Shown here: piece by piece, positions 13,146 through 40,410 of the stretch
Position numbering within the stretch: position 1 is the first letter of the stretch
How the letters are laid out: each line of letters starts with the position of its first letter
Source of the DNA: an uncultured Candidatus Berkelbacteria bacterium
GTDB lineage: Bacteria > Patescibacteriota > UBA1384 > UBA12157
Direction of reading: 5' to 3'
Length of the DNA stretch: 64,000 bases
Assembly: GCA_903877885.1 (NCBI GenBank)
Contig: CAIRFN010000005.1
Location: 17,956 to 81,955, forward strand
The notes under the pieces: generated by a model
The model's input: only the letters and a program-made list of their open reading frames with translations
Databases searched by the model: none
What the model was told of the DNA's origin: nothing
Program-made: the position numbers and the translations under genes

Positions 13146-14177
13146 TTAACTCGCTAATTTAAGAACTAATAAGTCGAGGGCCACTTTTGGCTCAACCTGA
13201 CCGGTTTTCATCGCCAAATCGTTTTCCATTAATTCATGGTAGATTTTTTTCAGTTCTATCATATTGTAATTCTTAATTAAATTTAGGCTTTTACCGGCCA
13301 CAAACGGATGCAATCCAGCCCGTTTCGACAGCTCCCACTGCGAATTTACTCCGCGCTCGGCAAAATCCATCGTAATTAACAGGTTCCGATATTGATAAAC
13401 AATCATCGACAAAATATAGAGTTCATTTTCGCCATTATCTAAAAGTCGGTGTAATTCGTATAATGATTTTTTGACGTTTCGACTAGCGACCGCGTCAACC
13501 AGAGCAAAAATATCGCTGGAAGTTTGCGGTTTAACCAAGAGTTCGATATTTTGAACTGTAATAATATTGTCATCCTCGAGCCGGTGTGAGTCTTTATCGA
13601 ACACCGACATCGGGGATCCAGATCCCGGATCCTGAAGCCTTCCGGTCCGGGATGACAGACCTTTAAAAGTTGCAAGTTTGGCAATTTCATTTCCTAACCG
13701 CCACAAATCGGCGCCAACATATTCAAATAATTTTTGAACACCATCAGATGTAATCGTACCATTTAATTTAGCAACTTCTTCGCGAATCCAGGTTTTTGCA
13801 CCTTGTTCATCAAGCGGTTTAAATTCTTGGGTTTTTTGTTTAGCTAATTTTTTGTAAAGCGATGTCCGTTTATCTGGCACGCCTGCTTCAGCAAAAACCA
13901 AAACGGTTGTTTCCGGGACTTTCGGCAAAAATTCGCCGATTTTTTCTTGTTCATCCTTTTTTCCTTCTAACAACAAATTTTCAATAATCACCAGCCGACT
14001 TTTGGCTAAAAATGGATAGGCCAAAATCTGCCGAATCATAAAATCGGCTTTAGTCGTCTTGCCGTCAATCACCGCTAAATTTGTGTCCCCTAAAGACGCG
14101 GAAATATACTTTTCCTTCATCTCTTTAATTTTTTGTTTTAGTCTGTAAGTATCCTCGCCAAAAAGAAATAATATCAT
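13146..14177 (-). CDS. holA: DNA polymerase III delta subunit with an in-frame repeat insertion
   Basis: LFGEDTY, PFLAKSRLVII, GADLWRLGNEIAKL, HPFVA, DLAMKTG. Confidence 0.9.
   Translation of the reverse strand: MILFLFGEDTYRLKQKIKEMKEKYISASLGDTNLAVIDGKTTKADFMIRQILAYPFLAKSRLVIIENLLLEGKKDEQEKIGEFLPKVPETTVLVFAEAGVPDKRTSLYKKLAKQKTQEFKPLDEQGAKTWIREEVAKLNGTITSDGVQKLFEYVGADLWRLGNEIAKLATFKGLSSRTGRLQDPGSGSPMSVFDKDSHRLEDDNIITVQNIELLVKPQTSSDIFALVDAVASRNVKKSLYELHRLLDNGENELYILSMIVYQYRNLLITMDFAERGVNSQWELSKRAGLHPFVAGKSLNLIKNYNMIELKKIYHELMENDLAMKTGQVEPKVALDLLVLKLAS
13569..13656. repeat. Family A two-arm element in frame within holA
   Basis: gtcatcctcgagccgg...ggatcc...ccgggatgac; encodes SSRTGRLQDPGSGSPMSVFDKDSHRLEDD. 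Confidence 0.9.
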
Positions 14178-14199
14178 GGTTTGAGTATATCTGATTTTC

Positions 14200-14228
14200 T
14201 TGACTTTTCAACCTTTTTACGCTACAAT
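14200..14228 (+). promoter_or_regulatory. Sigma70-type promoter
   Basis: TTGACT-N17-TACAAT. Confidence 0.7.
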
Positions 14229-14257
14229 TTGGACATTCGAACCTTGGAGGAAAGTCG

Positions 14258-14503
14258 ATGACGATATGCGATAAAATAAATCTGGCTATCCTCGAGTTCT
14301 GGCAAAATTATTGGGAAGAGTCAGAAGATCCGTACGGCGATTTTTTAAGCACGACTCGCGAAGAATTATTGCAAAATTTTTCACAGAAATTATCTGTTGC
14401 GCAAAAAAAACATTTTCTTCATTGCCCAGAATGTACCAGTTACTTTCACGGACACTATTTAATCCGTGAAGAAATGGCCGTCTACAACGACTTCAATGAC
14501 TAA
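14258..14503 (+). CDS. Small protein with an HxxxCxxC (zinc anti-sigma-like) motif
   Basis: GGAGG RBS, HFLHCPEC, terminator at 14526-14546. Confidence 0.65.
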   Translation: MTICDKINLAILEFWQNYWEESEDPYGDFLSTTREELLQNFSQKLSVAQKKHFLHCPECTSYFHGHYLIREEMAVYNDFND

Positions 14504-14547
14504 AATTCTATTTTCAATCTTACTTGCCCCCTCGGGGGCTTTTTTTA

Positions 14548-14576
14548 TTGACTTTTGACCGAATTCTCGATACAAT
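14548..14576 (+). promoter_or_regulatory. Sigma70-type promoter for the fabH-like gene
   Basis: TTGACT-N17-TACAAT. Confidence 0.7.
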
Positions 14577-14599
14577 CTGGACATCAGAGGAGGTGTACC

Positions 14600-15637
14600 T
14601 TGTTTAACAACATCAATATCATTGGCGTTGGCTCGTTTGTACCAGATCGGGTTTTGACAAACTACGATATCGAGAATATGCGACCTGATGATATCGAGCC
14701 GGAAAATTGGACCAACGATGCCTGGATTTTTCCGCGCACCGGTATTCGTGAACGCCGAGTTGCTCATGACAGTTGGGCTTCGAGTGATTTAATGGTCAGA
14801 GCGGCAAAAAAAGCTTTGCTCGATGCCGAAATGACGATGAATGTTATCGACCTAATCGTCACTTCCACCAGTTTTCCAGACAAGGGTTTTAATAATCCAC
14901 GAACCTCGGAAATCGTCAAAGATAAACTTGGCGCTCGCCAAAAAACTCTCTCGGTTTGCGAAGATGCTGCTTGCGCTGGTTTTACCTGGGCTTTAGAACG
15001 GGCTTGCATGGAAATGTTAAGACACGATTTTAAACATGCCTTAGTCGTCTCTGGCGATAAGGTTACATCGGCCGTCAATTACCAAGACCGCTCAACCTGT
15101 ATTCTCTTTGGTGATGCTGCTGGCGCGGTCATTTTAGAGAAAAATTCTCGATTTGGTGGCATTTACAGAACCCTTCGCGAAACTAATACTAAATACATTG
15201 AGGCGATTGAAATTCCGGCTGGCGGTTCGGCTTTACCATATATCATCAACTCTAACCCGGCTGATTTCTATATCAAAATGCCCGGCGGCGCCGATATGTT
15301 GAAAGTGATTGGTGGCGAGGTTATTCCCCAGCTTTATAATGATTTGAAGCAATATGCCAGACGAGGTGAGGTCAAATTCATTATCCCCCACCAGGCTAAT
15401 GCCCGAATCATTAAAACGGCCAAACATTACCTCAAGAATTTCGCTGGCGAAGTTTTTGACGCCAATATCGAATGTTTTGGTAACACTTCTGGCTCCAGCG
15501 TGCCCCTGGCACTGGACACGATTTATCGCCAAGGCAAACTCGCGCCTGGCGATATGATTATTCTAATGGGTTTTGGCGCCGGTTTTATTTACGGCGCAAA
15601 CCTAATCGAATGGTCCTTGCCAATTTACAAACCTTAA
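14600..15637 (+). CDS. fabH: Beta-ketoacyl-ACP synthase III family enzyme
   Basis: RTGIRERR, AACAGF, LFGDAAGA, PHQAN, GNTS (Cys-His-Asn triad); start moved to TTG 14600 behind AGGAGGT. Confidence 0.9.
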   Translation: MFNNINIIGVGSFVPDRVLTNYDIENMRPDDIEPENWTNDAWIFPRTGIRERRVAHDSWASSDLMVRAAKKALLDAEMTMNVIDLIVTSTSFPDKGFNNPRTSEIVKDKLGARQKTLSVCEDAACAGFTWALERACMEMLRHDFKHALVVSGDKVTSAVNYQDRSTCILFGDAAGAVILEKNSRFGGIYRTLRETNTKYIEAIEIPAGGSALPYIINSNPADFYIKMPGGADMLKVIGGEVIPQLYNDLKQYARRGEVKFIIPHQANARIIKTAKHYLKNFAGEVFDANIECFGNTSGSSVPLALDTIYRQGKLAPGDMIILMGFGAGFIYGANLIEWSLPIYKP

Positions 15638-15644
15638 CCAACAC

Positions 15645-15666
15645 GCGGTGGCCTCCACCGCTTTTT
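15645..15666 (+). terminator. Intrinsic terminator
   Basis: GCGGTGG/CCACCGC stem plus T-run. Confidence 0.75.
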
Positions 15667-15691
15667 AAATTCTGGCAATCTTCTAACAAAT

Positions 15692-15727
15692 AAGGACAGT
15701 CCTTCAGCGCGTTAAAGGACTGTCCTT
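15692..15727. repeat. Family B palindrome
   Basis: aaggacagtccttcagcgcgttaaaggactgtcctt. Confidence 0.85.
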
Positions 15728-15736
15728 TTATTCTTT

Positions 15737-15824
15737 GTCATCCTCGAGCCGGAGGGTACTCCGACATCAAGGATCCAGAAAATTCCTGGATCCCAGATCC
15801 TGAAGCCTTCCAATCTGGGATGAC
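15737..15824. repeat. Family A two-arm element, intergenic
   Basis: gtcatcctcgagccggagggtactccgacatcaaggatcc...ctgggatgac. Confidence 0.9.
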
Positions 15825-15831
15825 ATAAAAA

Positions 15832-16803
15832 TTAAAACAAGCTCAACCGATTATCTTCCCTATTAGATTTATGAATTCTGGGAATTAAGGATTTAAACCC
15901 GAGGTCTAAAAAGAGTTTTTCCACTTTTTCCTTATCAAAATCGTGAATTTTGGCATCTGATAATTTAAACTCGATCGGCGCATCTGAAACAATTTGTGAC
16001 AATTTTTGGCTTAAATATGCTTGATCTTTGTACTCAATTAATAAGGAAAGAACTTTTTTGGAAATTTTTAACTTTTCTGATAGTTTTTGAATTTTGTCAT
16101 CCTGAGCTTGCGAAGGAACTTTTTTAGATTCTTCACTACCGTTCAGAATGACATTATATAAATTATCAAGTGTTTGAAATTTCTCGATTAGATTGCTGGC
16201 CGTTTTTTCACCTATTCCTGGAACTCCGGGAATATTGTCCGAAGAGTCGCCTTTGAGCGCCTTTAGGTCAACAAATTGACTTGGATTAACATTATACCGC
16301 TCTTTGACTTTATTCTCATCGTACATGACCGCTTGCTGGACACCGCGCGCCATCGAATAAACCTTTGTACTCTGATCAATCAGCTGAAAAGTATCCGAGT
16401 CACCTGTCACAATAATGTTTTCAATTCCACTATCTTCTATCCCCTTTATTATCGTTGCGGCAATATCTTCGCCTTCATATCCTTCGGCCGAAACAATCGG
16501 AATATTCATGGTCTCCAACACTTTTTTGCAATATTGAATTTGCGGCACCAAATCATCAGGCATCGGTTTGCGCGTCGCTTTGTAATCAACATATTCCAAG
16601 TGCCGTTTGGTTGGTTTGGGTAAATCAAAACAAGCCACCAAGTATTCAGGTTGGAGTTCTTTAATGGCAGCAAGTAAAGCCGAGGCAAAACCATAGGCCG
16701 CGTTAATCGGATGACCATCGCGCGTCAAAGTCGGCGGAATACCATAGAATGCCCTAAAAATTAAAGCAAACGAATCAATTAAAACCAAACGATTTTTTAT
16801 CAT
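15832..16803 (-). CDS. Stand-alone 5'-3' exonuclease (PolA N-terminal domain)
   Basis: LIDS..FRAFY, YKATR, GDSD, LKGDSSDNIPGVPGIGEKTA. Confidence 0.92.
   Translation of the reverse strand: MIKNRLVLIDSFALIFRAFYGIPPTLTRDGHPINAAYGFASALLAAIKELQPEYLVACFDLPKPTKRHLEYVDYKATRKPMPDDLVPQIQYCKKVLETMNIPIVSAEGYEGEDIAATIIKGIEDSGIENIIVTGDSDTFQLIDQSTKVYSMARGVQQAVMYDENKVKERYNVNPSQFVDLKALKGDSSDNIPGVPGIGEKTASNLIEKFQTLDNLYNVILNGSEESKKVPSQAQDDKIQKLSEKLKISKKVLSLLIEYKDQAYLSQKLSQIVSDAPIEFKLSDAKIHDFDKEKVEKLFLDLGFKSLIPRIHKSNREDNRLSLF
16096..16152. repeat. Short family A two-arm element in frame within the exonuclease
   Basis: gtcatcctgagcttgcgaagga...attcttcactaccgttcagaatgac; encodes VILNGSEESKKVPSQAQDD. Confidence 0.8.
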
Positions 16804-16835
16804 TATGAATATACTTTAACACAGCTCTCTATACC

Positions 16836-16864
16836 TTGACAAATGGGCGATTTTATGGTACAAT
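16836..16864 (+). promoter_or_regulatory. Sigma70-type promoter
   Basis: TTGACA-N17-TACAAT with extended TG. Confidence 0.75.
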
Positions 16865-16954
16865 TTATTGTTGCAAAGTTGACTTAGTCAATTGTGACCG
16901 TTAGCAATTTTGCTGACATCGACCCCCGCCCGAGGCGGGAGAAGGAACCTTAAA

Positions 16955-17446
16955 ATGAAAACTTCCCTGAACTTGATGGTAATGGTTGTACTGGCGGTTT
17001 TTTCGGCGCTCCTGATGACAGGTTGCGGCGAAACGGCCGATCCGGGCAATCTCGCCGCCAAATCGTCAATCGCCATCACCGGCGATGTCTCCCCGACCGC
17101 CAACGGCGCGACGTTCCATGTCTGCCTGACCAACCCGAATCCCGGCACGGTCAGTAAGAACGTGAAGGCGAATATCTTCATCAACCCAAACAGGAAGCTG
17201 GAAGTCTTTGCTGAAACCACCGTGGGTACAAACATCACCAGTTGGCTGTACCTCGACATCCCCAATGGGATGAAAATCGGTACCGTGACCCTGTGCCAGT
17301 GGGACGTCGAGAACAACTGGATTGTTGTTCCGATTGACCCAGTCATGGCAAAAAACCCCAGGAGCATCGACGTCGGCGACATCCTGGCACAGACGCCAAC
17401 AACACAAAACCAACGCTACCTTTATGGAACGTTGGTCCCCAAATAA
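16955..17446 (+). CDS. Putative lipoprotein (GC-richer ORFan)
   Basis: Signal peptide ending in LMTGC lipobox; terminator at ~17464-17497. Confidence 0.7.
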   Translation: MKTSLNLMVMVVLAVFSALLMTGCGETADPGNLAAKSSIAITGDVSPTANGATFHVCLTNPNPGTVSKNVKANIFINPNRKLEVFAETTVGTNITSWLYLDIPNGMKIGTVTLCQWDVENNWIVVPIDPVMAKNPRSIDVGDILAQTPTTQNQRYLYGTLVPK

Positions 17447-17503
17447 CACCGCAATAAAATGCGAAACTCCCCCTTTCATTACGATTGGGGGAGTTTTGTT
17501 TTA

Positions 17504-17936
17504 AAATATGAAGTATGAATCATGAAGTATGGATTACGGTAAATGACTTTTAGAGCTTTTAATTAAACCGGTTAATAATTTATGAACTATAACTGTTTTG
17601 TTAGCTAAATCAATAAAAATTTTGTTATCAATGTAGCCTATATCTCGCGCGATTAATAACTGATTCTGGAGCTCAGCTACAGAACCTTGAGAAATAGCAT
17701 AAAATTGGATTTTATCTTTATATGATTGACGACAAAATCCCTCGGCAATATTTGAGGTGATTGAGACTGCACATCTTTGAATTTGATTTGTTAAACTAAA
17801 AATTTCGCTTTTAGGAAAATTTTTTGCCGCTTTATATATCCCTAAAACAAGTTCATGCCCTGTTTGCCACGCGTTTAAATCTGTGAATGATTTAATCGAT
17901 TTCCCTTCCATAATTCATACTCCATGATCCATACTT
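17504..17936. repeat. Inverted heptamer arrays bracketing the four-helix-bundle gene
   Basis: aaatatg aagtatg aatcatg aagtatg (17504-17531) versus cataatt catactc catgatc catactt (17909-17936). Confidence 0.8.
17534..17911 (-). CDS. Four helix bundle protein (23S rRNA IVP-like family)
   Basis: SFTDLNAWQ, FPKSEIFSLTNQIQRCAVSITSNIAEG, GSVAELQNQL. Confidence 0.92.
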   Translation of the reverse strand: MEGKSIKSFTDLNAWQTGHELVLGIYKAAKNFPKSEIFSLTNQIQRCAVSITSNIAEGFCRQSYKDKIQFYAISQGSVAELQNQLLIARDIGYIDNKIFIDLANKTVIVHKLLTGLIKSSKSHLP

Positions 17937-17941
17937 CTACC

Positions 17942-19258
17942 CTATCCATCCATTCTCTTTAACAACGCGTCGCGAGCGATTTTGCGGTCAGACCAAGGAA
18001 TTTTCTTTTCGCCAACCACCATACATTCCTCGGCGCCTTTGCCGGTAATGAGAACTATATCATCTTTGTGAGCAATTTTAATAGCCTTTTCAATCGCCTC
18101 TTTGCGATCAAAAATCTGGAAAAAGTTCTCGTTTAAAACTTTGGGATTTTTGCTATCAGCGCCGCGAGGCACGCCGCCGGAGACTTCCTCGATAATTTTT
18201 TGAGCGTCCTCGGTATATGGATCTTCGTTCGTCACAATCACAATATCGGCAAATTTACCAGCTAAGGCGCCCAAGATTGGCCGTTTGGTTTTATCACGAT
18301 CGCCGCAAGAACCCAAAACCGAAATAATTCGAGCTTTTTTAGCCATATCCAAGGTTTGATAAACTTTCTCCAAAGCGTCTGGCGTATGAGCGTAATCAAT
18401 AATGACAGCAAAACTTTGGCCTATATCCACTTTTTCCATTCGACCTGGAACCACATCCATTTCTTCGAGTGCTTGTTTGGCCACATCCAAATGAATTTTT
18501 AAAGCATAGGCCACACAAATCGCAGCCAAAGCATTATAAATATTAAACTTGCCGGGCAAATTAGAATTAACCGCAATTTGACTGGTTGGAGTGACAATCG
18601 TAAACATTGAACCAGTTGGTTCTAGAATAATTTTTTTAGCTAAAATTTCAGGTCGAACCTGACGCGTGGTTTGAGCATTTTCAATACCGTAAGTGATAAT
18701 ATCGCGAGCTGGTAAAGCCGCAAGCTGATCAATTGTTTTTTCATCATCATTATTTAAAATATTAATCGTTTTGCCAGTCGAAAAAAGTTTGGTTTTAACC
18801 TTGCGATATTCCTCAAAAGTCTTATGATAATCCAGATGGTCGTGCGTCATATTGGTCATAATGGCAATCTGATAATTGATCCCATAAGTGCGATATTGGC
18901 TAATGGCGTGAGAAGAAGTTTCCAAAACCACCCAATGACAGCCAGCTTTAAGGCATCGACTCAAAAACTTTTGAACCGCAAATGGCGAGTCGGTGGTCAT
19001 TTTAGTCGTATTAACCCACTCTTCTTTACCAATCTTAAAATTAATCGTCGTGGCCATACCCACACGGTAATTGGCTTTTTCCAAAATTCTGGCAATCATA
19101 TTACAAGTCGTGGTTTTGCCGTTTGTACCAGTCACACCGATAATTTTGAGTTTTCGACCAGGAAAACCATAAATCATGGCCGCCAAAACGCCTCGGGCGA
19201 AATGCGTCCAAATGATAAATGATTCAGGTAAAATTGATTTAAGATAAGATTTAATCAT
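17942..19258 (-). CDS. murE: UDP-N-acetylmuramyl-tripeptide synthetase (MurE family)
   Basis: GVTGTNGKTT, ETSSH, DHLDYH, DYAHTPD, GKGAE. Confidence 0.9.
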   Translation of the reverse strand: MIKSYLKSILPESFIIWTHFARGVLAAMIYGFPGRKLKIIGVTGTNGKTTTCNMIARILEKANYRVGMATTINFKIGKEEWVNTTKMTTDSPFAVQKFLSRCLKAGCHWVVLETSSHAISQYRTYGINYQIAIMTNMTHDHLDYHKTFEEYRKVKTKLFSTGKTINILNNDDEKTIDQLAALPARDIITYGIENAQTTRQVRPEILAKKIILEPTGSMFTIVTPTSQIAVNSNLPGKFNIYNALAAICVAYALKIHLDVAKQALEEMDVVPGRMEKVDIGQSFAVIIDYAHTPDALEKVYQTLDMAKKARIISVLGSCGDRDKTKRPILGALAGKFADIVIVTNEDPYTEDAQKIIEEVSGGVPRGADSKNPKVLNENFFQIFDRKEAIEKAIKIAHKDDIVLITGKGAEECMVVGEKKIPWSDRKIARDALLKRMDG

Positions 19259-20217
19259 TTCCTTCTCATCTTCTCGATAAACTTAAATAAATTATACCAG
19301 CATTTGCTGTAAATAATATCCCAACTTCCGACTGTTTGGTATTTGATGCCGCCAAATTGCTCTTTAAATTGAGTGATACCGGCGTATTTATGTTTTTTGT
19401 CATTCTGAGCTTGCGAAGAATCTATAGATCCTTCACTGCGTTCAGGATGACTATTAAATGGCGCTACTGCTAATAAATCATAAAACTTGCAACCTTTGGC
19501 TTTGGCGATTTTAATCGCCTCCCAGTGCATTAGGTATGGTGCCATTACATTGCGATATTTTGATAAGCTTGCTCCATAAAGATAAGTCGCCATTTCGTCA
19601 AAAAAAGTAAAAATTCCAGCCGCCACGGGAATATCATTATATTTAACAACCAAAAGTTCAACGGAATTTATTTCTTTTAAGGTTTGAATTAATTTAGCAA
19701 AATATTTTTTTGGTCTGATTTGAAAACCATCTCGGCTAGCCGTTTCCTTAAAAATTTCGTAAAATTCGTCAATATTTTGTGATTTTTCAACAACTAAACC
19801 ATGTTTTTGCCCTACTTTAATATTATATCGGCCTTTTGGTTTCATTTTGGCCAAAATTTCTTCTTCAGATTTTGTTATATCCACAATTTGACGATATTCT
19901 GGCTGAATCTCTTCAAACGATTTAATGAGATGATTTTTCTTCAAAATTGTTGTAATTTTTCCACCAAAAACCGAGTTTTTTTGATTCAAAAAATCTAACC
20001 TTAAAAATATCGAGTGGGATTTTTTAGAAATTTCTTTAATTTTTGGTAAAAATTTGGGGAAATTGATTTTGTAAAAATCGACTTCCGGCGAGTACAGAAA
20101 ACTAAAACCCAGTGGTAATGGTTTTTCCAAAACTAAAACCTCATCAACCCAATGGGCTTTCCAACCTTGACTTTCGCGAAGCGCAGCCCATTCCTTTGTT
20201 TGTAGAATTGATTTCAT
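19255..20217 (-). CDS. FemABX-family peptidoglycan bridge peptidyltransferase
   Basis: LQTKEW, KGRYNIK, YLYGAS, YLMHWEAI, FKEQFGG; adjacent to murE. Confidence 0.88.
   Translation of the reverse strand: MKSILQTKEWAALRESQGWKAHWVDEVLVLEKPLPLGFSFLYSPEVDFYKINFPKFLPKIKEISKKSHSIFLRLDFLNQKNSVFGGKITTILKKNHLIKSFEEIQPEYRQIVDITKSEEEILAKMKPKGRYNIKVGQKHGLVVEKSQNIDEFYEIFKETASRDGFQIRPKKYFAKLIQTLKEINSVELLVVKYNDIPVAAGIFTFFDEMATYLYGASLSKYRNVMAPYLMHWEAIKIAKAKGCKFYDLLAVAPFNSHPERSEGSIDSSQAQNDKKHKYAGITQFKEQFGGIKYQTVGSWDIIYSKCWYNLFKFIEKMRRK
19399..19451. repeat. Short family A two-arm element in frame within the femX-like gene
   Basis: gtcattctgagcttgcgaagaatctatagatccttcactgcgttcaggatgac; encodes SHPERSEGSIDSSQAQND. 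Confidence 0.85.
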
Positions 20218-20246
20218 ACTATAATTAGTATATAATAAATTATCTT

Positions 20247-21482
20247 ATGATGAAAGAAAAAATGAAAATATTAGCCATTGAATCAAGTTGTGACGAAACC
20301 GCGGCCGCCGTTATTGAAAATAATAACGGTGAGATTAAGATACATTCAAACATAATTTCTAGTCAAATTGATATTCACAAACAATTTGGTGGCGTTTTTC
20401 CCGAAATTGCTTCGCGTGCTCATGCCGAAAATATTATTCCGGTGATTAAAGAATCTTTAATTAATAGTATTGATGATGTCGATCTAATCGCTGTCACTGA
20501 CGGACCAGGTTTAATCGGTTCGCTTTTGGTTGGCGTCAATGTAGCCAAAACCTTGAGTTTCGCAAATAATATTCCGATCTTACCAATCAACCACTGGCTT
20601 GGTCATATCTATTCCTGTTTTACCGATGATAAAAATTTACCTCGATTCCCTCTTCTCGCCCTTATTGTTTCCGGTGGTCATACTGGTTTGGTGTTGATGA
20701 AAAGTCATACCGAGTACATTCAAATCGGCGCTACACTTGATGACGCCGCTGGCGAAGCTTTTGATAAAGTAGCAAAACTCTTAGAATTAGGTTATCCTGG
20801 CGGACCGGCGATTTCAGCTGCGGCTGAAGAATATAAAAAAGAATGTCATTCCGGTCCAGATGGTAATACTGGAACCGGAATCCAGGCCTGGATTCCCGAT
20901 GTCGAGTTGCCACTCGGCTCGAGAATGACAATTTCCTTTCCGAGAGCCATGCTTAATTCTAAAGATTATAATTTAATGTCAATTAAATTTCCGCGGGCCA
21001 TGATGCAATCAGGGAACTATAATTTCTCATTTTCAGGGTTAAAAACTTCTGTACTAAACAAAGTTCGAACTTTAACTGAAAATTGGAAATTGAGAACTGA
21101 AAATTTTGCCCCCGTAGTTGCCTATGAATTTCAACAATGCGTCATTGATATTTTAATTGGTAAAACTTTGAAAGCGGCTGAAGAATTTAAGCCAAAATCA
21201 ATTCTTCTTTGCGGCGGCGTTTCAGCAAATAAGGAATTAAGAGAACAAATGAAAAAAGCTATTTTGTCATTCCGGACCCCTCCTGTCATTCCGGACCGGT
21301 TGGCAACAGGATCCGGAATCCAGGAAAAAACGAATGACAAGATTAATTTTTTCTGTCCGCCCATCGAATTAACCGGCGATAACGCGGCCATGATCGGTAT
21401 TGCCGCAGCCTATCAAATCAACGCTGGCGTTAAACCAACTACATATAATAATGTAAATGCGAACTCAAATTTGAAATTGTAA
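20247..21482 (+). CDS. tsaD: tRNA N6-threonylcarbamoyladenosine transferase TsaD with several insertions
   Basis: IESSCDET, GPGLIGSL, HWLGH, SGGHT, DDAAGEAFDK, SFSGLKT, GGVSAN, DNAAMI. Confidence 0.95.
   Translation: MMKEKMKILAIESSCDETAAAVIENNNGEIKIHSNIISSQIDIHKQFGGVFPEIASRAHAENIIPVIKESLINSIDDVDLIAVTDGPGLIGSLLVGVNVAKTLSFANNIPILPINHWLGHIYSCFTDDKNLPRFPLLALIVSGGHTGLVLMKSHTEYIQIGATLDDAAGEAFDKVAKLLELGYPGGPAISAAAEEYKKECHSGPDGNTGTGIQAWIPDVELPLGSRMTISFPRAMLNSKDYNLMSIKFPRAMMQSGNYNFSFSGLKTSVLNKVRTLTENWKLRTENFAPVVAYEFQQCVIDILIGKTLKAAEEFKPKSILLCGGVSANKELREQMKKAILSFRTPPVIPDRLATGSGIQEKTNDKINFFCPPIELTGDNAAMIGIAAAYQINAGVKPTTYNNVNANSNLKL
20845..20929. repeat. Family A two-arm element in frame within tsaD
   Basis: gtcattccggtcc...ggaatccaggcctggattccc...gagaatgac; encodes CHSGPDGNTGTGIQAWIPDVELPLGSRMT. 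Confidence 0.9.
21266..21338. repeat. Family A stub plus arm in frame within tsaD
   Basis: gtcattccggacc occurs at 21266 and 21285, the second continuing to ggatccggaatcc; encodes SFRTPPVIPDRLATGSGIQ. Confidence 0.85.
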
Positions 21483-21526
21483 CCTTAATGTACACCCTGG
21501 AAGTGTACATTGGTTTGAACTAATAT

Positions 21527-21806
21527 AAAGAGAACGCCCCTGGCAAGCCAGGGGCGGTAGGAAAGATGGATAGGGATTGGGAAAGAAAAGAATGAAAAGT
21601 AGGCGTTGCGATGCCTCGAGTGATGAAGAGATGTGCTAGACTTAGAACGAGTGGACAGATGCGGTCTGAACGAAGCCTTCTTGCGAAGGACAAGTGAACG
21701 TAGAGCCCTAAGGCTCGGACAGTGATGGTCTAGGCGGCAGCCCGAAATGCTGGCGAGTCGCAACCGAGAACACCAAAGAGGTGTCGAACATGACAAAGCA
21801 ACGCCT
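21527..21806 (-). ncRNA. Candidate ~280-nt structured ncRNA between tsaD and valS
   Basis: Promoter TTGACA-N17-TACGAT (21814-21842), 9-bp closing stem 21601-21609/21798-21806, internal hairpins, terminator 21535-21556. Confidence 0.6.
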
Positions 21807-21888
21807 TATAAATATCGTAGTTCTCACTAAAACCTTTGTCAAGACCTTAAAAATCTGATAAGATAAAATAAATTAATGAGAAAATATT

Positions 21889-24039
21889 ATGCAAGAATTA
21901 CCATCAAATTACAATTATAAAGAAACTGAAGACAAAATTTATGCGCTGTGGGAAGAAGCCGGCGCGTTTAAACCAGTTATTGATCCTAATCAAAAACCAT
22001 ATACGATTGTGATTCCGCCACCAAATGTGACTGGTTCTCTTCATATGGGTCATGCTTTAAATAACACAATTCAAGATATTTTAATTCGTCGCTCTCGGAT
22101 GCGTGGCGTGCCAACTCTATGGATTCCCGGAACTGATCATGCCGGTATTGCTACTCAAAATGTGGTGGAAAAAAAGTTGGCTAAAGAAGGCAAAACTCGT
22201 CAAGAACTTGGGCGCGAAGAGTTCACCAAAGAAGTTTGGGATTGGGTTGATCAATATGGCAACACTATTATTGGACAGCTCAAGAAAATGGGTTGTTCTT
22301 GCGATTGGTCCAGACAGCGTTTTACCATGGATGAAGGCTATTCAGAAGCGGTTAAAGTCGCGTTCAAAAATTACTATGATAAGGGTTATATTTATCAAGG
22401 TGAACGAGTGATCAACTGGTGTACCCGTTGTCAAACTGCCTTATCTGATATCGAAGTCGAACATATTGATCAAAACGCTAAACTATATTTTTTTAAATAT
22501 GATAAAAATTTTCCGATCACCATTGCCACTACGCGACCAGAGACAAAGCTTGGCGATACAGGTGTAGCGGTCAATCCGAAAGACAAAAGATATCAGGATT
22601 ACATTGGTAAAACTTTCAAGGTTAATTTTTGCGGTGTCGACCGCGAGATTCGGGTTTTTGCTGACATTAGTATTGATATAACCTTTGGCACTGGCGCCGT
22701 CGGAGTCACTCCAGCGCATTCTTTGGTTGACTATGAAATGGCCGAAAAAAATGGCTTGGATATTATTAAAGTGATTGATCAATATGGGAAAATGACCAAA
22801 GAAGCGGGAACAGAATTTGAAGGTTTGAAAGCAACTGAAGCGCAAGCCAAAGTCATCGAAATGTTGGAAAAAGCTGGGCTGATGGAAAAAGTGGAAGAAA
22901 TCCAAAACGCGATCAGTGTGTGTTATCGCTGTAATCGACCGATTGAGCCTCAACCGTCAAAACAATGGTTTTTAAAGATGTCGGAATTAGCAAAACCAGC
23001 GATTGAAGCGGTTAAATCTGGTCAAATTAAATTCACACCAGACCGTTGGACCAAAGTTTATTTAGACTGGATGGAAAATTTGCGCGACTGGTGCATTTCT
23101 CGCCAAATCTGGTGGGGGCACACCATTCCAATTGAAGGCGAAACTGATGTTTTGGACACTTGGTTTTCGTCAGCCTTGTGGCCGTTTGCCACACTTGGTT
23201 GGCCCAATAAAACTGAAGACCTAAAATATTTTTATCCGACCACCACACTTTCCACTGCCCGCGATATTATTTATCTGTGGGTGGCACGAATGATTTTTTC
23301 AGGGCTTGAATTTACCAACGAAATTCCATTTTCACAGGTTTATATTCATCCAACGGTTTTCAATAAAGAAGGTAAACGCATGTCCAAATCTTTGGGCACC
23401 GGCGTCGATCCTTTGGAACTGATCGAGAAATACGGTGCCGATGCCACGCGATTTGGTCTTACCTATATTAATACCGGGATTCAAGATTTGAAATTTGACG
23501 AAGAAGCTATTGGTGCTGGCAAAAAATTTGCCAATAAGTTGTGGAATATCACCAGATTCATGTTGATGAGCATTTGTCATTCCGGTCCGGATGGCTCCGG
23601 AACCGGAATCCAGGAAAATGATAATCTGGATTCCAGATCAGGTTGCCAACCAGTCTGGAATGACAAGATGGAACCAAGAACTGAAGCCGATAAAATCATT
23701 CTTGAAAAACTTAATGCCGTTATTAAATCAACTGACAAAAATCTTGATGAATTTAAATTTGGCCAAGCGGCGCATGATTTGTATGATTTCGTCTGGCACG
23801 ATTTGGCCGACGTATATATAGAAGAAAGCAAAGTGACCGCGAACGGTCATCCCGAGCCGAAGTCCGGCGAGGGAACCCCTGATTTTTCAGTATTACTTTA
23901 TGTAATAGTAACTTCGATTAAACTTTTGCACCCGATTATGCCGTTTGTAACAGAAGAAATCTGGCAAAAACTCTACGAAGATAAATTAGTTGATGAAAGA
24001 ATGCTGATTACGGCAAAATGGCCAAAAGCACAAGAATAG
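21889..24039 (+). CDS. valS: Valine--tRNA ligase (short form)
   Basis: PPPNVTGSLHMGH, DHAGIATQ, DWCISRQIWWGH, DTWFSS, RMSKS. Confidence 0.96.
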   Translation: MQELPSNYNYKETEDKIYALWEEAGAFKPVIDPNQKPYTIVIPPPNVTGSLHMGHALNNTIQDILIRRSRMRGVPTLWIPGTDHAGIATQNVVEKKLAKEGKTRQELGREEFTKEVWDWVDQYGNTIIGQLKKMGCSCDWSRQRFTMDEGYSEAVKVAFKNYYDKGYIYQGERVINWCTRCQTALSDIEVEHIDQNAKLYFFKYDKNFPITIATTRPETKLGDTGVAVNPKDKRYQDYIGKTFKVNFCGVDREIRVFADISIDITFGTGAVGVTPAHSLVDYEMAEKNGLDIIKVIDQYGKMTKEAGTEFEGLKATEAQAKVIEMLEKAGLMEKVEEIQNAISVCYRCNRPIEPQPSKQWFLKMSELAKPAIEAVKSGQIKFTPDRWTKVYLDWMENLRDWCISRQIWWGHTIPIEGETDVLDTWFSSALWPFATLGWPNKTEDLKYFYPTTTLSTARDIIYLWVARMIFSGLEFTNEIPFSQVYIHPTVFNKEGKRMSKSLGTGVDPLELIEKYGADATRFGLTYINTGIQDLKFDEEAIGAGKKFANKLWNITRFMLMSICHSGPDGSGTGIQENDNLDSRSGCQPVWNDKMEPRTEADKIILEKLNAVIKSTDKNLDEFKFGQAAHDLYDFVWHDLADVYIEESKVTANGHPEPKSGEGTPDFSVLLYVIVTSIKLLHPIMPFVTEEIWQKLYEDKLVDERMLITAKWPKAQE
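23576..23664. repeat. Family A two-arm element in frame within valS
   Basis: gtcattccggtccgg...ggaatcc...ggattcc...ctggaatgac; encodes CHSGPDGSGTGIQENDNLDSRSGCQPVWND. Confidence 0.9.
23846..23879 (+). repeat. Family A single degenerate arm in frame within valS
   Basis: gtcatcccgagccgaagtccggcgagggaacccc; encodes HPEPKSGEGTP. Confidence 0.65.
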
Positions 24040-24075
24040 ATAAATTTTGAAATTCGAATTTTGAATTTTTTCTTT

Positions 24076-24449
24076 GTCATTCCAGACCGGCCGGAGGCAG
24101 GATCTGGAATCCAGAATAAAATGAATAATTATTATGTGTATATTTTGACTAGCAGAAGAAACGGCACTTTATATATTGGCGTAACTAATGATCTGATTAA
24201 AAGAATATGGGAACATAAAAACCATAGTAAAAAAGGATTTACAGAAAAATATAACATTTGCCAATTGATATACTTTGAGCAAACTAATAATATAAACTCC
24301 GCTATTAATAGAGAAAAACAATTAAAATCATGGAATAGAAAATGGAAACTTGACTTAATTGAGAAAGTCAATCCTGATTGGAAAGATTTATATCAAGAAT
24401 TGTTGTAACTGGATTCCCGATGTCGGATGCCATCCGACTCGAGAATGAC
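24076..24449 (+). mobile_element. Family A element enclosing a GIY-YIG gene (putative autonomous copy 1)
   Basis: Left arm 24076-24114 ends 6 nt before the ATG; right arm 24409-24449 starts directly after the stop. Confidence 0.7.
24121..24408 (+). CDS. GIY-YIG nuclease family protein (UPF0213-like)
   Basis: YYVYIL...LYIGVTNDL..R..EH...REKQLK.W.R.WK..LIE..NPDW; start moved to ATG 24121. Confidence 0.93.
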   Translation: MNNYYVYILTSRRNGTLYIGVTNDLIKRIWEHKNHSKKGFTEKYNICQLIYFEQTNNINSAINREKQLKSWNRKWKLDLIEKVNPDWKDLYQELL

Positions 24450-24502
24450 AATTGGATAATTAAAAATTGATTCGAAATTCGAAATTCAAAATTCGAATTT
24501 AA

Positions 24503-24982
24503 TTGAAAGTTACTATGTCTTTTACAAAACTCCTCATTATTCTATCTATCTTATTATTCGGTTTGAGCCTTTCGCTCGTGGTTTTTAAAGTTACCTATAA
24601 TAATCAGACGAAAGATATTAAGACTAAAAATCAACAAATTCTCGATCAATATAGTAATAATATTAAAACCGAAAATGATGCTTATAAATTAACTGTCGCT
24701 GGACTACATCAACTGGATGTGAATTTGCCGGATTTAGCTTTAATCAGTTTGAAACAAGCCACAGTTGCTAATCCCAGTTATCGCGATGGTTGGCTGGCAT
24801 TGGGGTCAGCTCAATTTGACACTGCGAATTTCAATAATGCTCTTATCTCTTTCCAAACCGCGGCCAAACTCGATCCAATTTTTCCTGAAACCTATCGTCT
24901 TCTCCAGATAACTTACAATAAACTCGGTCAAAATGACGCGTCTAAACTTGCGCAAACAAAATACGAATTGTTAGCAAAATAG
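24503..24982 (+). CDS. Membrane-anchored TPR protein
   Basis: N-terminal TM; TPR-like NPSYRDGWLALG...AAKLDP. Confidence 0.75.
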   Translation: MKVTMSFTKLLIILSILLFGLSLSLVVFKVTYNNQTKDIKTKNQQILDQYSNNIKTENDAYKLTVAGLHQLDVNLPDLALISLKQATVANPSYRDGWLALGSAQFDTANFNNALISFQTAAKLDPIFPETYRLLQITYNKLGQNDASKLAQTKYELLAK

Positions 24983-25036
24983 TTTTTGTGTTATACTTTA
25001 TATATATTTCATAAATCATGGTAGGTCGGAGGGGCT

Positions 25037-27475
25037 ATGTTTAATAAATTCAAAAAGAACTTCATCAAGTTTATGATCGGCGTATTATTAGTAGTCTCTT
25101 TTATGCCGAATATTATTGACGCTCAAAAAACCGAATTTGATCGCTGGCAACAAAAAGTAGCTATTCAAAATAATCATTGGCAACAATTAAATGAGCAAGC
25201 TAAAGCAGTTGCTGAAAAATTACAATCAGCTGACAAAAATCCTCTAGGACTAGCCACAGCTAAAGCGGCTGGAAATTATCCAGTTAAAGGTCTTCGAGTA
25301 GCCTTAGACATTTTTGATCGATATACTAATGATGCTACCTATCGACCAAATTACTGGTGGGATTCAGCACCGCTTCCGACTGGTACAAATCTGGCCGATA
25401 TTCAATTTGATATCTCTCTAAGCGCTCCTAATTATAACCTTATTAATAGAACTCTTGTTAGTACTGCCAAAGGTTCTGATTTTCCTAATGACGACAATCT
25501 AAAATGTAATAATGCTGACAAAACCAATTGCGGTACCGTTATGGTCACGGTTAAAACAATGTTGAACCAAAATGGTAATCGAACAGAAATTGGTTCTTCC
25601 TTAGCTTCATTGGTAGTTCCGAATTTAAGCGATCGTGCAAGTAAATTGGCCGCTAGTGCTATTGATAATGATTATAATCCCGCAACATTAAGCACAAGCA
25701 GCACTAGTTCTATTGATAATTCTGACTATCCACCAGCGCCAGACGGTACTACCAGAATGACTGGTGAGCAATGTCAAAACGACCCGGTATGCAGTACTTT
25801 ACCAACATTTGGCGTGCTCGCAGAACCAACTGCTGTATGGGGTGATATAGCTCCAATTGGCATACTGGCATACAATGCTAAAAGTATTGCCAAAATTACT
25901 TTGAGCATTTCTGATCCAGTTTCCAATAAATCATTTTATAAAGACGATTTTACTAACGTTAAAAAACAGGATCAAATATATTATGAATATGATTGGGACA
26001 CTTTACTAGCTCAAACTAATGTCGATAGTGCTAATTCTACCCACACTGCTTTAGCCGAATTTTACAAAGATAATGGTAAAGGCGGTTTTACTTCTATCGG
26101 CCGAGCTACTGCTACGATTAAAATTACTGCTTTCAGTAGTTTCGATCCAATGACTGATGGTTTCTGGGGCGGCTATTTAAGAAATGATGGTAGCTATAGC
26201 CAAGATTGGAAAGTAAAACTTGGTTGTGATAAAAGTGCTGATCTTTGCAAAGATATCGATTCAACTAAAACTGCTATAAGTACAGCAATTGCTAGCGGTC
26301 AAGTTACAGAACAAGATGTTAATGATCTGATAAAAAGTTTCTCTCGTTATAATACCCAATTAAGCAAATCTAGTAGCGGAAACGATGAAACAATGATGCA
26401 GACTGTAGCTAATTGTTATAATATGACTGATTTAATTGGAGTAGTTAATGATCAGATGGATACCAAAGTTGGTATCCCTATTAGCGATATGGACGAAGCT
26501 TTCTTAAAATCACCTGAAAGTATTACTATCTTGCAAGTAGTTAACCAATATAGTTCACGGATTGCTTCTTATAATCCACAAACTCTTGATGAATGGAAAG
26601 CAATGCCTTTTTGGCCACAAATGAGTAATGAGATACTAAATAAGATTAGCCGCGATCCAGCCAATCTTATTAATTCTATTGACGATGTTACACCAGCAAG
26701 TTTAGACACTACGACAACCGCAAGCAACCACAATTCTTTTGCTCTTTTTATGAACCCAACTGGAGTCGCAAAAGCAACTGACCCAATAGGTTTCGTGACC
26801 GATGGCGCCTTCCTTATTGCAGATACAATTAAAATGTTTAGAGATCCAAGTATTGGAAATGCCGCCTGGATATTGGGCGATGTTGCGCTCGGGGCAGTAG
26901 ATGTTGTTCTTGGCGGTGGCGGCGAACTTCATGCCGCTATTGCTAGTGGTAAAGCTGCTATTTGGATGGCTACACATTTTCCGAAAGTAGTTGAAGTATA
27001 TAGAGTAACTAAGGGCGTAATTGCATCGGCTAAAATTGGCGAACGGGTTGGTGCATTTTTAACTAGGATCGGTGGTGGCGCAATTAAGGAAGCAATTATT
27101 AAAGGTGGTACAGCGGTCACTGAATATCTTGCAGCTCATCCAAATCTTGCTAAAATTGTCGATAGAATCAACCCTTTTAAAGCCAAATATTGGGCTTGGG
27201 CGCCAGGAATAGCTAAGAAATTTATCACCAAAGCCAAAGCTGCCGCTTGGTTTGTTTTTGATCATATTATTCCATTCGCCAACCTTGCTGCCCACGTTGC
27301 TGGAGATTCAGGTAAATGTGAATACTGCGCAGATGCAAAAAAGTGGTGGACATGGTTTACTCCAAGCGGAGCTATTCTAAACACCTTATGTGAGCTTCAA
27401 TGTGTAATTATCAACTGGATTGCCAGCGCGGTTGGCTTTGTTGTGGATAAGGTTTTACTACCAAGTATCCTTTAA
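25037..27475 (+). CDS. Large secreted or membrane hypothetical protein upstream of the VirB6-like gene
   Basis: 812 aa, signal peptide, paired Cys, hydrophobic Gly/Ala-rich C-terminal part. Confidence 0.8.
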   Translation: MFNKFKKNFIKFMIGVLLVVSFMPNIIDAQKTEFDRWQQKVAIQNNHWQQLNEQAKAVAEKLQSADKNPLGLATAKAAGNYPVKGLRVALDIFDRYTNDATYRPNYWWDSAPLPTGTNLADIQFDISLSAPNYNLINRTLVSTAKGSDFPNDDNLKCNNADKTNCGTVMVTVKTMLNQNGNRTEIGSSLASLVVPNLSDRASKLAASAIDNDYNPATLSTSSTSSIDNSDYPPAPDGTTRMTGEQCQNDPVCSTLPTFGVLAEPTAVWGDIAPIGILAYNAKSIAKITLSISDPVSNKSFYKDDFTNVKKQDQIYYEYDWDTLLAQTNVDSANSTHTALAEFYKDNGKGGFTSIGRATATIKITAFSSFDPMTDGFWGGYLRNDGSYSQDWKVKLGCDKSADLCKDIDSTKTAISTAIASGQVTEQDVNDLIKSFSRYNTQLSKSSSGNDETMMQTVANCYNMTDLIGVVNDQMDTKVGIPISDMDEAFLKSPESITILQVVNQYSSRIASYNPQTLDEWKAMPFWPQMSNEILNKISRDPANLINSIDDVTPASLDTTTTASNHNSFALFMNPTGVAKATDPIGFVTDGAFLIADTIKMFRDPSIGNAAWILGDVALGAVDVVLGGGGELHAAIASGKAAIWMATHFPKVVEVYRVTKGVIASAKIGERVGAFLTRIGGGAIKEAIIKGGTAVTEYLAAHPNLAKIVDRINPFKAKYWAWAPGIAKKFITKAKAAAWFVFDHIIPFANLAAHVAGDSGKCEYCADAKKWWTWFTPSGAILNTLCELQCVIINWIASAVGFVVDKVLLPSIL

Positions 27476-27489
27476 ATAAATTTAAATCA

Positions 27490-30063
27490 ATGAAAAAATT
27501 TCTTATTACAAATTCCGGGCTGTTTTTAACGATTTTAATCGGTTTAATTTTATTAGGCTGTTTTGGTATTCACCAGCACCTTAATGCTGATTTTTTAAGT
27601 TTAGCTCCTGGAGTCGCCCATGCCGAACCTTTAGACCAAGAATTGAGAACCGGCGGACCAGCTTGGATCTACACCGTTTGGCGCATTACTTTAAGTTTAG
27701 CCAATGTTTTTGTTGGCGTAATTTTATTATTTTTCGCGTTTGTCAATATTGCCCATATTGATTACGACACGCTCCAGCTTAAAAAAACTTTTCCTGGTTT
27801 GATTACTGGCATTATTATGGCTAACTTCAGTTTGGTTATCTGTCGAATGATGGTCGATATTGCCTCAATCTTAACCTTAACTTTTACTCAAGATTCCACA
27901 GCAATGGTTAATGGTATTCTCTGCTCTTTAACCTTTACTCCTCAAACTACTACTAGTGGGCTGGTCACTTTAGGTATTGCTGTCGGTGCTATTTCCGCCT
28001 TCGGCGGCCCCTTATTATTACTTTTGATTTTAATTTTGGTGGCAGTATTTTTAGGTGTTCTTTTCTTGTCGTTAATGATGCTAATTCGTAAATCAATCAT
28101 CGAAGTTTTAGCCGCCGTTGCTCCTTTAGCCTTCATTATGCTCGCCTTTCCCCCAACCGAAACCTATTTTAAAAAATGGTGGGAATGGTTTTTAAGTTGG
28201 ACTTTTATGGGTCCAATTATGATGGCTTTACTTTGGATTGCTGGTCAAGTCGGCGGCCATTGCGGCGACCCGTTTAGTATGACTCGTACCTTAGCGGTTT
28301 TGGCTTTGGTTTATTTAGCCGCCACTGTTCCATTTAGTATGGGCGGAGTGATTATGGGCGCGATTAAAAAAACTGCTCAAGGTGCCTACAAAGTTGCTTC
28401 TAATAATCCTTGGAGCAAAGCCAGCACGGCAAAAATGAAACAGAAAGCTGGAAACTGGTTTAATAAAACTGGTATTGGTCAATCGTGGCGCAATGCCGAA
28501 GCAACAACCGAAGATTATAACAAACTTTATGATACTCAAGCTAAAGGCGCTCAAGATGAAGCAAGAAGAGGACGAGCACCAAGGGAACAAAGCGAGATCG
28601 ATATGCAAATGAAAGCCGCTCAAGATATCACTGCCGATATCAGTGCAAGAGTTGAAGAAAATTTAAACCGAATGGAAGCTGGTCAACTTCTTGATGGTTT
28701 AACGAATGACGATGTTCAACGCTTTACTGGTCACGCTACCGCACAAGCAGCTGCTAGCCAATTTGTTCGCAATGCCGCTAGAGTTAATCAAGCCAAAAAA
28801 GCAATTGCTAAACGACGTGCTTTAGATATTTTTACTATGGCTCGTCATAATAACGAAGCTAATACTCAAGTAAGAAATGCGATGAGAGCAAGATTGACTG
28901 AAACAGAACTTCCAACAAATGATCCAAATTATCATGCTTTTGTAAATAACCAGGACGGTGTTACAGCCACAGTTTATGATTCAAATAGGCAAGCCAGAGG
29001 TCGGCAAAATTTTACTCATGCTGACTTAGTCGACCAGGCTGCAGATTGGAGACTTAACGGTAAAAAAGCTGCACAAGGGAGTCAACAACAACAAGAATGT
29101 TTTCGAATCGCTCAAGAATATGAGCAACAAGCACAAGCCTTCCAAGATGCCAATCCACAAGTATATGACTATCAAGCAGTACTTGACCGAAATTTATCAG
29201 GTCGTCAATTTGCAGAAATTAATACTGTTCATGTAGATGAAGCTAAAACTGAAGAAATGAATACTACAGGTTTCAATGTCCTTGCAGATACAAGAAAACG
29301 AAATCCTGGCGATTTAAGAAGATTTGGTACCGCAGAAATTCGCGGTACAGACGAAGACTTTGATCGATTTTTAAGAGGAGAGCAACATTTGAATGAAGGT
29401 TTTGGAAATGACGCCTCTCTAATTAAACGAGACGCGACAATGGGTCATGCAAGAAAAGGTGTCAGTAGTGGTGATGTAGCGGGTGTATATGCACTTAATG
29501 ACATTGTAAATCGCATCCAAGAAGCTAGAGAAGTTTGGCGCGGCGATCCTAATCATATACGAACTGTACGTAATGTCCATGGCCAAGATATTCAAATTGA
29601 TGAAGGGGAGTCTAAGGCTAATTTATTTCAAGATAGCCTCGAACGCCTGACTATTCCAGCTCAAAGACAACACATGGAAGAGCAAATCTATAATCAATAC
29701 CGTGAATCATTGCCTCCAGCAGCACAAGCTCATTTGCGAGATCTTACTGGACTAAATCCAACACAAAGACAAACGGAGGTTAATTCACTATTACCCGGTC
29801 AAAGAACAGTCGCATTACGTAATTTTGATCTAACTCGTTTATCTCCTTCTGACCGAGGTGATGGAATTATTCATAAATCATTTTTAAGAAATGTCTATGG
29901 TGGTGTAGAACGTGATGAAAATTTACGTTTTGGTGAAAGTTCTGGCGCAACAGCGGGGAGATCACCGGCCGCCGGTGATGCCCACCCGCTTACTAATCCA
30001 ACACCCAGAAACCAACAAGGTCAGAATCCTGGACAAAATCCAGGCCCAGGAACCGGTCCATAA
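27490..30063 (+). CDS. VirB6/TrbL-like type IV secretion membrane protein with long soluble tail
   Basis: Multi-TM region with MANFSLVICRMMVD and LAAVAPLAF..LAFP.T..YFKKWW pattern. Confidence 0.7.
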   Translation: MKKFLITNSGLFLTILIGLILLGCFGIHQHLNADFLSLAPGVAHAEPLDQELRTGGPAWIYTVWRITLSLANVFVGVILLFFAFVNIAHIDYDTLQLKKTFPGLITGIIMANFSLVICRMMVDIASILTLTFTQDSTAMVNGILCSLTFTPQTTTSGLVTLGIAVGAISAFGGPLLLLLILILVAVFLGVLFLSLMMLIRKSIIEVLAAVAPLAFIMLAFPPTETYFKKWWEWFLSWTFMGPIMMALLWIAGQVGGHCGDPFSMTRTLAVLALVYLAATVPFSMGGVIMGAIKKTAQGAYKVASNNPWSKASTAKMKQKAGNWFNKTGIGQSWRNAEATTEDYNKLYDTQAKGAQDEARRGRAPREQSEIDMQMKAAQDITADISARVEENLNRMEAGQLLDGLTNDDVQRFTGHATAQAAASQFVRNAARVNQAKKAIAKRRALDIFTMARHNNEANTQVRNAMRARLTETELPTNDPNYHAFVNNQDGVTATVYDSNRQARGRQNFTHADLVDQAADWRLNGKKAAQGSQQQQECFRIAQEYEQQAQAFQDANPQVYDYQAVLDRNLSGRQFAEINTVHVDEAKTEEMNTTGFNVLADTRKRNPGDLRRFGTAEIRGTDEDFDRFLRGEQHLNEGFGNDASLIKRDATMGHARKGVSSGDVAGVYALNDIVNRIQEAREVWRGDPNHIRTVRNVHGQDIQIDEGESKANLFQDSLERLTIPAQRQHMEEQIYNQYRESLPPAAQAHLRDLTGLNPTQRQTEVNSLLPGQRTVALRNFDLTRLSPSDRGDGIIHKSFLRNVYGGVERDENLRFGESSGATAGRSPAAGDAHPLTNPTPRNQQGQNPGQNPGPGTGP

Positions 30064-40279: not shown

Positions 40280-40410
40280 AAAAAAACAAAAATCACCGCA
40301 AGCGGTGAAATATATAAAAACATCTTTCCCGCAAGGGGTCGGAGGTAGCACCTAAATTAATGGGTTGCTGGTGGATCATCGGGCCGAATCCCTCACCACA
40401 CTCTTGATAT
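40280..40410 (-). promoter_or_regulatory. SAM-I riboswitch with terminator upstream of metK
   Basis: ATCAAGAG...GAGGGATTCGGCCCGATGA...CAGCAACC...GGTGCTA...GAAAGATG, then TCACCGC/GCGGTGA hairpin and T-run. Confidence 0.92.

Follow-up and report, generated by a model that had tools for sequence, protein, structure and literature searches.

Small RNAs that act independently of Hfq and carry unpaired, C-rich UCCC motifs have been described in Firmicutes, with RsaA, RsaC, RsaE, RsaG, RsaH and RNAIII in Staphylococcus aureus (PMC2790875) and LhrC in Listeria (PMC4132741). For the Rsa RNAs of S. aureus, binding of unpaired UCCC motifs to SD regions is documented (PMC2790875). The Firmicutes RNAs are stand-alone genes with their own promoter, a classical Rho-independent terminator and a protective 5′ structure; they expose unpaired pyrimidine-rich segments with UCCC, and their hosts do not depend on Hfq. 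A short segment between tsaD and valS in an uncultured Candidatus Berkelbacteria bacterium (GenBank assembly GCA_903877885.1, contig CAIRFN010000005.1), hereafter the cassette, appears to have the same organization. It also differs from these RNAs: the Rsa and LhrC motifs lie in conserved loops and have been shown to bind SD sequences, whereas the UCCC motifs of the cassette lie in a long tail for which no target stands out, and the predicted RNA is longer (~275 nt) and without a homologue in the other genomes that we searched. The likeness to the Rsa RNAs is one of functional class, not of homology family.

Two housekeeping RNAs are also relevant for comparison. In 6S RNA, the 5′ and 3′ halves of the molecule pair into a long, mostly double-stranded rod that opens into a central bubble. 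Like the cassette, it is a stand-alone gene with a closing stem between the 5′ and 3′ ends, and the two sizes are within a factor of 1.5 of each other. Unlike the 6S rod with its bubble, the cassette is branched, is not conserved in relatives and does not match the covariance model of the family (RF00013). The SRP RNA (RF00169, RF01854) resembles the cassette in being a small GC-rich RNA with one GNRA-capped hairpin, but the cassette has neither a match to these models nor loops of the domain-IV type, and its genome has no detectable Ffh.

Here, we analyze the cassette within a window of 64,000 nt, the whole stretch of DNA under study. We find that it is a GC-rich, non-coding minus-strand unit with its own promoter and intrinsic terminator. 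Our tentative reading, held with slightly less than even confidence, is that it encodes a predicted small RNA of ~275 nt, seen in one species only, which, if active, would most likely be an Hfq-independent base-pairing RNA acting through its unpaired C/U-rich tail. We take it for an accessory feature of minor weight rather than for a missing housekeeping RNA. An earlier sequence-only reading of the locus had listed a set of sequence elements, every one of which is present where it had placed them. Its interpretation fared less evenly: a non-coding, separately bounded minus-strand unit without a match to a known family is supported in silico, whereas a 6S-like RNA, an anti-SD RNA and a new class are not.

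A bounded minus-strand unit between tsaD and valS

The cassette lies in a gap of 406 nt (21483-21888) flanked by two plus-strand genes, tsaD and valS (Table 1). Directly after the stop codon of tsaD there is a separate plus-strand hairpin, which is likely the gene's own weak terminator and would lie outside the RNA. The minus-strand TTGACA-N17-TACGAT promoter proposed earlier was recovered by a consensus scan, with matches at 10 of 12 positions and a perfect consensus at the -35 box. Its spacing predicts a transcription start at ~21807/21806. At the other end, the terminator with a CUUG loop, also proposed from the letters, is a strong one on the minus strand, with a stem of 9 bp of which 8 are G-C. 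Read on the plus strand, the stem lacks a T-run after it, which assigns the terminator to the minus-strand unit. Promoter and terminator thus share a strand and are suitably spaced, and the 5′ arm of the closing helix P1 starts at the predicted transcription start, two observations that we count in favor of a small RNA. Transcription of the cassette, with the start and end of the transcript, is a prediction made from these signals.

Table 1. Features of the tsaD-valS region, in window coordinates.
Feature	Position	Strand	Sequence	Basis or remark
tsaD	20247-21482	+		TIGR03723, 358.6 bits (cut-off 296.1)
Hairpin directly 3′ of the tsaD stop codon	21490..21508	+	GTACAC-CCTGGAA-GTGTAC	Sequence; role predicted
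Intrinsic terminator	21525..21556	-	Stem CGCCCCTGG-CTTG-CCAGGGGCG, then TTCTCTTTAT (21556..21535); T-rich run UUCUCUUUAU	Consensus scan
C/U-rich tail, 44 nt	21557..21600	-	Two UCCC motifs	Unpaired probability at least 0.9 at every base
P1, 3′ arm	21601..21609	-	GCAACGCCU	Perfect pairing with 21806-21798
Domain closed by a proposed long-range helix	21636..21733	-	CUAGAC (21733-21728)/GUCUAG (21641-21636)	Complementarity in the sequence
Hairpin added in this work	21668-21656	-	CAGA-CCGCA-UCUG	In MFE and centroid
Hairpin with GNRA loop	21689-21676	-	CCUUC-GCAA-GAAGG	In MFE and centroid
Hairpin	21716-21703	-	GAGCC-UUAG-GGCUC	In MFE and centroid
Hairpin P3, weak	21738..21752	-	CAGC-AUUUCGG-GCUG	MFE pairs this part differently
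Hairpin P2	21769..21785	-	GACACC-UCUUU-GGUGUU	Closing G-U pair possible on the minus strand only
P1, 5′ arm	21798..21806	-	AGGCGUUGC	Perfect pairing with 21609-21601
Sigma-70-type promoter	21814..21842	-	TTGACA-17-TACGAT; -35 at 21842-21837, -10 at 21819-21814	Consensus scan, 10/12 positions
valS promoter-like site	21836..21864	+	TTGTCA-17-TAAGAT, TG before the -10	Consensus scan, 9/12 positions
valS	21889-24039	+		TIGR00422, 864.5 bits (cut-off 612.1)

Composition and predicted fold

The G+C content is 54% between 21600 and 21799, to be compared with a genome mean of 38%, and only 1.3% of the 200-nt windows of the genome reach this value. The other GC-rich islands of the genome (G000) correspond to rRNA, tRNAs, RNase P RNA or imported coding DNA, and none of them resembles the cassette. 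Given the imported coding DNA among these islands, a high G+C content alone is no proof of an RNA gene. One island outside the window (L134, G000:C11:4000-5000) has 58% GC and is coding, with two ORFs separated by a terminator, one of which has a ribosome-binding site (GGAG); it is likely imported DNA. The core of the cassette is composed of 32% C, 29% U, 22% G and 17% A, i.e., it is 61% pyrimidine throughout. Such a pyrimidine content, with C far above G, is odd for a structured RNA and we count it against a small RNA.

The helices proposed by the sequence-only reading can be found in the sequence. The 9-bp helix joining the two ends is formed by perfect complements, AGGCGUUGC and GCAACGCCU, and the four hairpins GACACC/GGUGUU, CAGC/GCUG, GAGCC-UUAG-GGCUC and CCUUC-GCAA-GAAGG are all there; to these we add a further one (Table 1). 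The long-range CUAGAC/GUCUAG pair survives in part: the complementary segments are present, but the helix occurs in neither the minimum free energy (MFE) structure nor the centroid, both of which are multi-branched with short hairpins. For the 218-nt core, the earlier structure model has a predicted energy of -55.3 kcal/mol, against -61.2 kcal/mol for the MFE. Beyond the short hairpins, the fold is a model prediction.

The minus strand has an MFE of -80.9 kcal/mol (z = -3.95), and none of 200 shuffled sequences was as stable, whereas the plus strand has a z of only -1.95; a repeat run gave -3.74 and -2.49, respectively. For reference, the RNase P RNA and the tmRNA of the same genome have z values of -2.49 and -3.28. 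The background for these values is a genome rich in palindromic repeats and hairpins, and 2 of 38 random 284-nt windows drawn from it fold as extremely as the cassette, which makes the fold notable, not exceptional. The asymmetry between strands, with the more stable fold on the strand of the promoter, counts in favor of a small RNA. The same holds for the two tetraloops (GCAA and CUUG) and for two G-U pairs, all of which fit the minus strand only.

Distribution, strain variation and the variable gap

The searches for homologues were consistently negative. BLAST against 60 related genomes gave no credible homologue, the only match being one of 21 nt to the tail in a single genome (G047, E 0.008), which we take as chance. 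We also based a covariance model on the one available sequence, with the structure of the sequence-only reading; searched in 149 relatives, it gave one partial match of 48 nt in one genome (17.7 bits, E 0.009), which is chance level over 150 genomes. Among 80 metagenome loci that have a valS orthologue and its upstream flank, the same model gave only scores of 8.3 and 6.3 bits, which were rejected. There was no match in phages and plasmids (blastn, distant mode), a pattern made of two hairpins had 0 occurrences in genome contigs and 0 in viral contigs, and the 18-mer of the 5′ end had 0 in viral contigs. The 21-mer of the tail had one match, in Hallella seregens, that does not extend past 21 nt, with ~0.3 expected by chance. 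Hence, the search for covariation in related genomes by BLASTN and Infernal, which had been suggested as a check, found no homologue and brings no covariation support, and the putative new class has no second member in any search. With no homologue in any of them, the fold and the function have no comparative support, and a new class cannot be claimed. The idea of a MITE or another repeat element was rejected, since the cassette is single copy in its own genome (blastn with 7-nt words, and covariance model).

Five sequencing runs contain the stretch. All are DNA, from lake or freshwater metagenomes of two studies, four being possible sources of the stretch itself. A contig of a run from the second study (X5) has the cassette at 98% identity, with 7 substitutions and 1 insertion in the 406 nt. 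All these changes lie within 21763-21828, and the tail is identical. The five that fall inside the predicted transcript are all at positions left unpaired by the model, so that no modelled pair is broken (one contig, at 3.4x). The stem of P2 is kept and its CCUC-containing loop is altered, a loop change that we count against a small RNA. The divergence between X5 and the window is ~1.25% across the neighborhood, in a patchy manner, and is not lower in the cassette (8 in 406); between strains, there is no sign in the cassette of either extra constraint or decay. None of the contigs of X5 or of another run (X1) has a joint that removes the cassette, the cover of X5 being thin (2-5x) and fragmentary.

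Two other observations concern the surroundings. Over 14000-28000, the differences between X5 and the window range by contig from 0 in 172-383 nt to 7-12 in 282-430 nt, which suggests a recombination mosaic or mixed strains. In addition, between 24122 and 24407 an X5 contig skips 284 nt and has 3 different letters at the junction (depth 2.8, short side of 25 nt). The strain of the second study would accordingly lack most of a small GIY-YIG nuclease gene (24061-24408), a presence/absence polymorphism.

The synteny of tsaD and valS is widespread in the class, and the gap between them varies from ~30 nt to 1.2 kb. In relatives it holds HicB/HicA (G003), a PaaX/Cas2-like gene (G009), a 23S-IVS four-helix protein (G027) or unknown small ORFs (G002, G007 and G026). 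From these loci (L013, L017, L020, L022, L024 and L039), we conclude that the gap is a variable slot for small accessory genes and that the cassette is the occupant of this slot in this species.

The turnover of unrelated small genes in this slot counts in favor of the main alternative to a small RNA, namely that the cassette is a non-functional remnant, either decayed cargo or an imported GC-rich fragment, of which a promoter, a terminator and hairpins that arose by chance are left and any transcript would be noise. A remnant would also account for a cassette that is missing from every relative searched, for the random windows that fold equally well, for the lack of visible extra constraint between strains, and for the company of imported coding DNA among the GC-rich islands. 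Still, a decayed gene might have left some residual protein similarity, and there is none in any frame. Nor does this alternative fit well with a promoter that is perfect at the -35 box and a terminator of 9 bp with 8 G-C pairs, both intact and exactly framing a body with pairing ends, with a fold asymmetry that favors the strand of the promoter, or with strain changes that avoid paired positions inside the transcript (in one low-depth contig). We therefore regard a remnant as rather unlikely, while taking it more seriously than any other alternative to a small RNA.

A possible cis role of transcription

The promoter of the cassette and the valS promoter-like site are back to back on opposite strands (21814-21842, minus; 21836-21864, plus), and their overlapping -35 hexamers surround a palindrome-like core, TTGTCAAG. 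One may thus imagine a cis-acting unit in which the act of minus-strand transcription matters and its RNA product does not: it would compete or couple with the valS promoter, or run antisense to read-through from tsaD. The overlap of the two -35 boxes counts in favor of such a unit, and so does the weakness of the terminator-like hairpin of tsaD, which makes plus-strand read-through across the cassette conceivable. However, relatives with a gap of ~30 nt manage without any cassette, and neither role needs a folded body of 200 nt and a strong dedicated terminator. We consider such a unit improbable, well behind a remnant.

The C/U-rich tail and its possible action

The C/U-rich single-stranded tail of the sequence-only reading is also single-stranded in our predictions (Table 1), and a possible action of the small RNA can be built on it. 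Pairing of the 5′ and 3′ ends in P1 would protect a compact body of 200 nt. Between this body and the terminator, it would leave the 44 nt of the pyrimidine tail, with its two UCCC motifs, single-stranded. The tail could then pair with purine-rich stretches of mRNAs, e.g., ribosome-binding sites, and thereby damp translation. Any function of this kind is proposed by analogy with the Firmicutes RNAs.

The SD of this genome is AAGGAG(G) and the 3′ end of its 16S rRNA is canonical. Neither CUCCUU nor CCUCC occurs in the predicted RNA or its tail. When the tail was paired with 1170 start regions using RNAduplex, the mean energy was -10.69 kcal/mol, against -10.63 kcal/mol for shuffled tails, and 16 of 20 shuffles matched or surpassed the best pairing of the real tail with a start region (-30.1 kcal/mol). 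The earlier suggestion of an anti-SD RNA accordingly finds no support: the motifs are missing and the tail binds start regions no better than its shuffles. The two UCCC motifs themselves are about what the composition of the tail predicts (~0.9 expected, an estimate). We found neither Hfq nor CsrA in this genome, and with CsrA not found, the idea of a CsrA sponge on the plus strand was rejected.

A broader version of the small-RNA reading can be formulated, to which we give very little credence. The cassette might be the first member to be seen of a class of fast-evolving, pyrimidine-rich regulatory RNAs of Patescibacteria, in which each species would have its own. The tail would titrate purine-rich ribosome-binding sites, or else a protein that binds pyrimidines, such as S1, and serve as a cheap global brake on translation, in hosts without Hfq, without CsrA and, as found here, without SRP. 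The literature searched yielded neither a catalogue of small RNAs of Patescibacteria nor a study of structured or small RNAs in the phylum.

Coding potential and known RNA families

There is no plus-strand ORF of at least 40 aa in the gap, where stop codons abound in each of the three plus frames. On the minus strand, an ORF of 103 aa starts at a TTG (21796..21485) and reads through the terminator. The cassette could in principle be a small protein gene, using this ORF or frames of 57, 44 or 27 aa, as the ORF is open across 103 codons and has an AAGG 7 nt ahead of the TTG. Yet a sequence so poor in A is expected to lack stops over 103 codons in ~5% of cases per frame (an estimate), and the AAGG would fall at the extreme 5′ end of the transcript. 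No Pfam family matches the ORF, and a search of 5.8 billion protein clusters gave no homologue. At -0.375 bits/codon, its codon score is below that of every one of 780 real 103-codon windows sampled from this genome (mean +0.319, sd 0.129, minimum -0.071). Protein-like conservation of this ORF, which would have spoken against a non-coding unit, was thus not what we observed, and the passage of the ORF through the terminator adds to the case against it. We regard a small protein gene as highly improbable. The idea that the cassette is a replication origin was rejected because its contig has no global GC-skew turning point.

The Rfam comparison proposed as a check gave no family at the gathering threshold for the cassette. 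Over the whole window, on both strands, Rfam 15 yielded only a SAM riboswitch at 40317-40413. When a region of 801 nt was searched with E values up to 10, there were 7 weak matches, the best of them at 18.7 bits for a cut-off of 55 and driven by the terminator. The covariance models thus bear out the earlier statement that there is no signature of RNase P, tmRNA, SRP or T-box. We found no tRNA or tmRNA in 20000-24500, and the RNase P RNA and tmRNA of the genome are on another contig. The models of 6S RNA (RF00013) and of SRP RNA (RF00169 and RF01854) have no match in the region or in the genome. The suggestion of a 6S-like RNA fails on the missing RF00013 match, on two halves that are both pyrimidine-rich and on the multi-branched fold; with 61% pyrimidine throughout the core, the two halves cannot form a rod of the 6S type.

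A divergent housekeeping RNA (6S or SRP RNA) that the Rfam models fail to recognize in this phylum might explain why the three models match nothing in a 99%-complete genome, but it is largely refuted and the least probable of all the alternatives, as such an RNA would be shared whereas the element is missing from a closed genome of the same family and from all other relatives searched, the cassette is not rod-shaped, RNase P RNA and tmRNA are present elsewhere, and no SRP RNA is expected in a genome where Ffh and FtsY were not found.

The SRP system was not found

This last point led to a result of its own. The genome, which is 99% complete, has no match to PF02978, PF00448, TIGR00959 or TIGR00064. 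A scan for the DT.GR motif identified no ORF resembling an SRP GTPase; of its P-loop candidates, the best three were RadA, PilB and PilT according to Pfam. The best match of a tblastn search with the Ffh of Escherichia coli has an E value of 0.87, whereas controls encoded at the same E. coli locus (rplS, trmD, rpsP and grpE) all match the genome, with E values from 1e-11 to 1e-60. The pattern extends to relatives. In a sample of the phylum, none of 201 genomes had a match to PF02978 and none of 121 had one to PF00448; within the class, RF00169 matched none of 31 genomes, and E. coli Ffh had no match in the 5 genomes searched with it, four of which are single-contig. Control genomes included in the SRP searches gave matches throughout. 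Since neither Ffh nor FtsY was found in the genome, no SRP RNA is expected there, and the cassette is not an SRP RNA. We found no statement of the absence of SRP in these bacteria in the literature searched, and it may be known outside this scope.

Implications

The main value of the cassette is a negative one, in that it is not a hidden gene for 6S RNA, SRP RNA, RNase P RNA or tmRNA. On its own it changes little, as we found neither relatives nor a target. Should it be transcribed, it would add a further species-specific small RNA to a phylum in which RNA biology has hardly been studied. The absence of SRP, if it is real and unreported, would be more interesting than the cassette itself.
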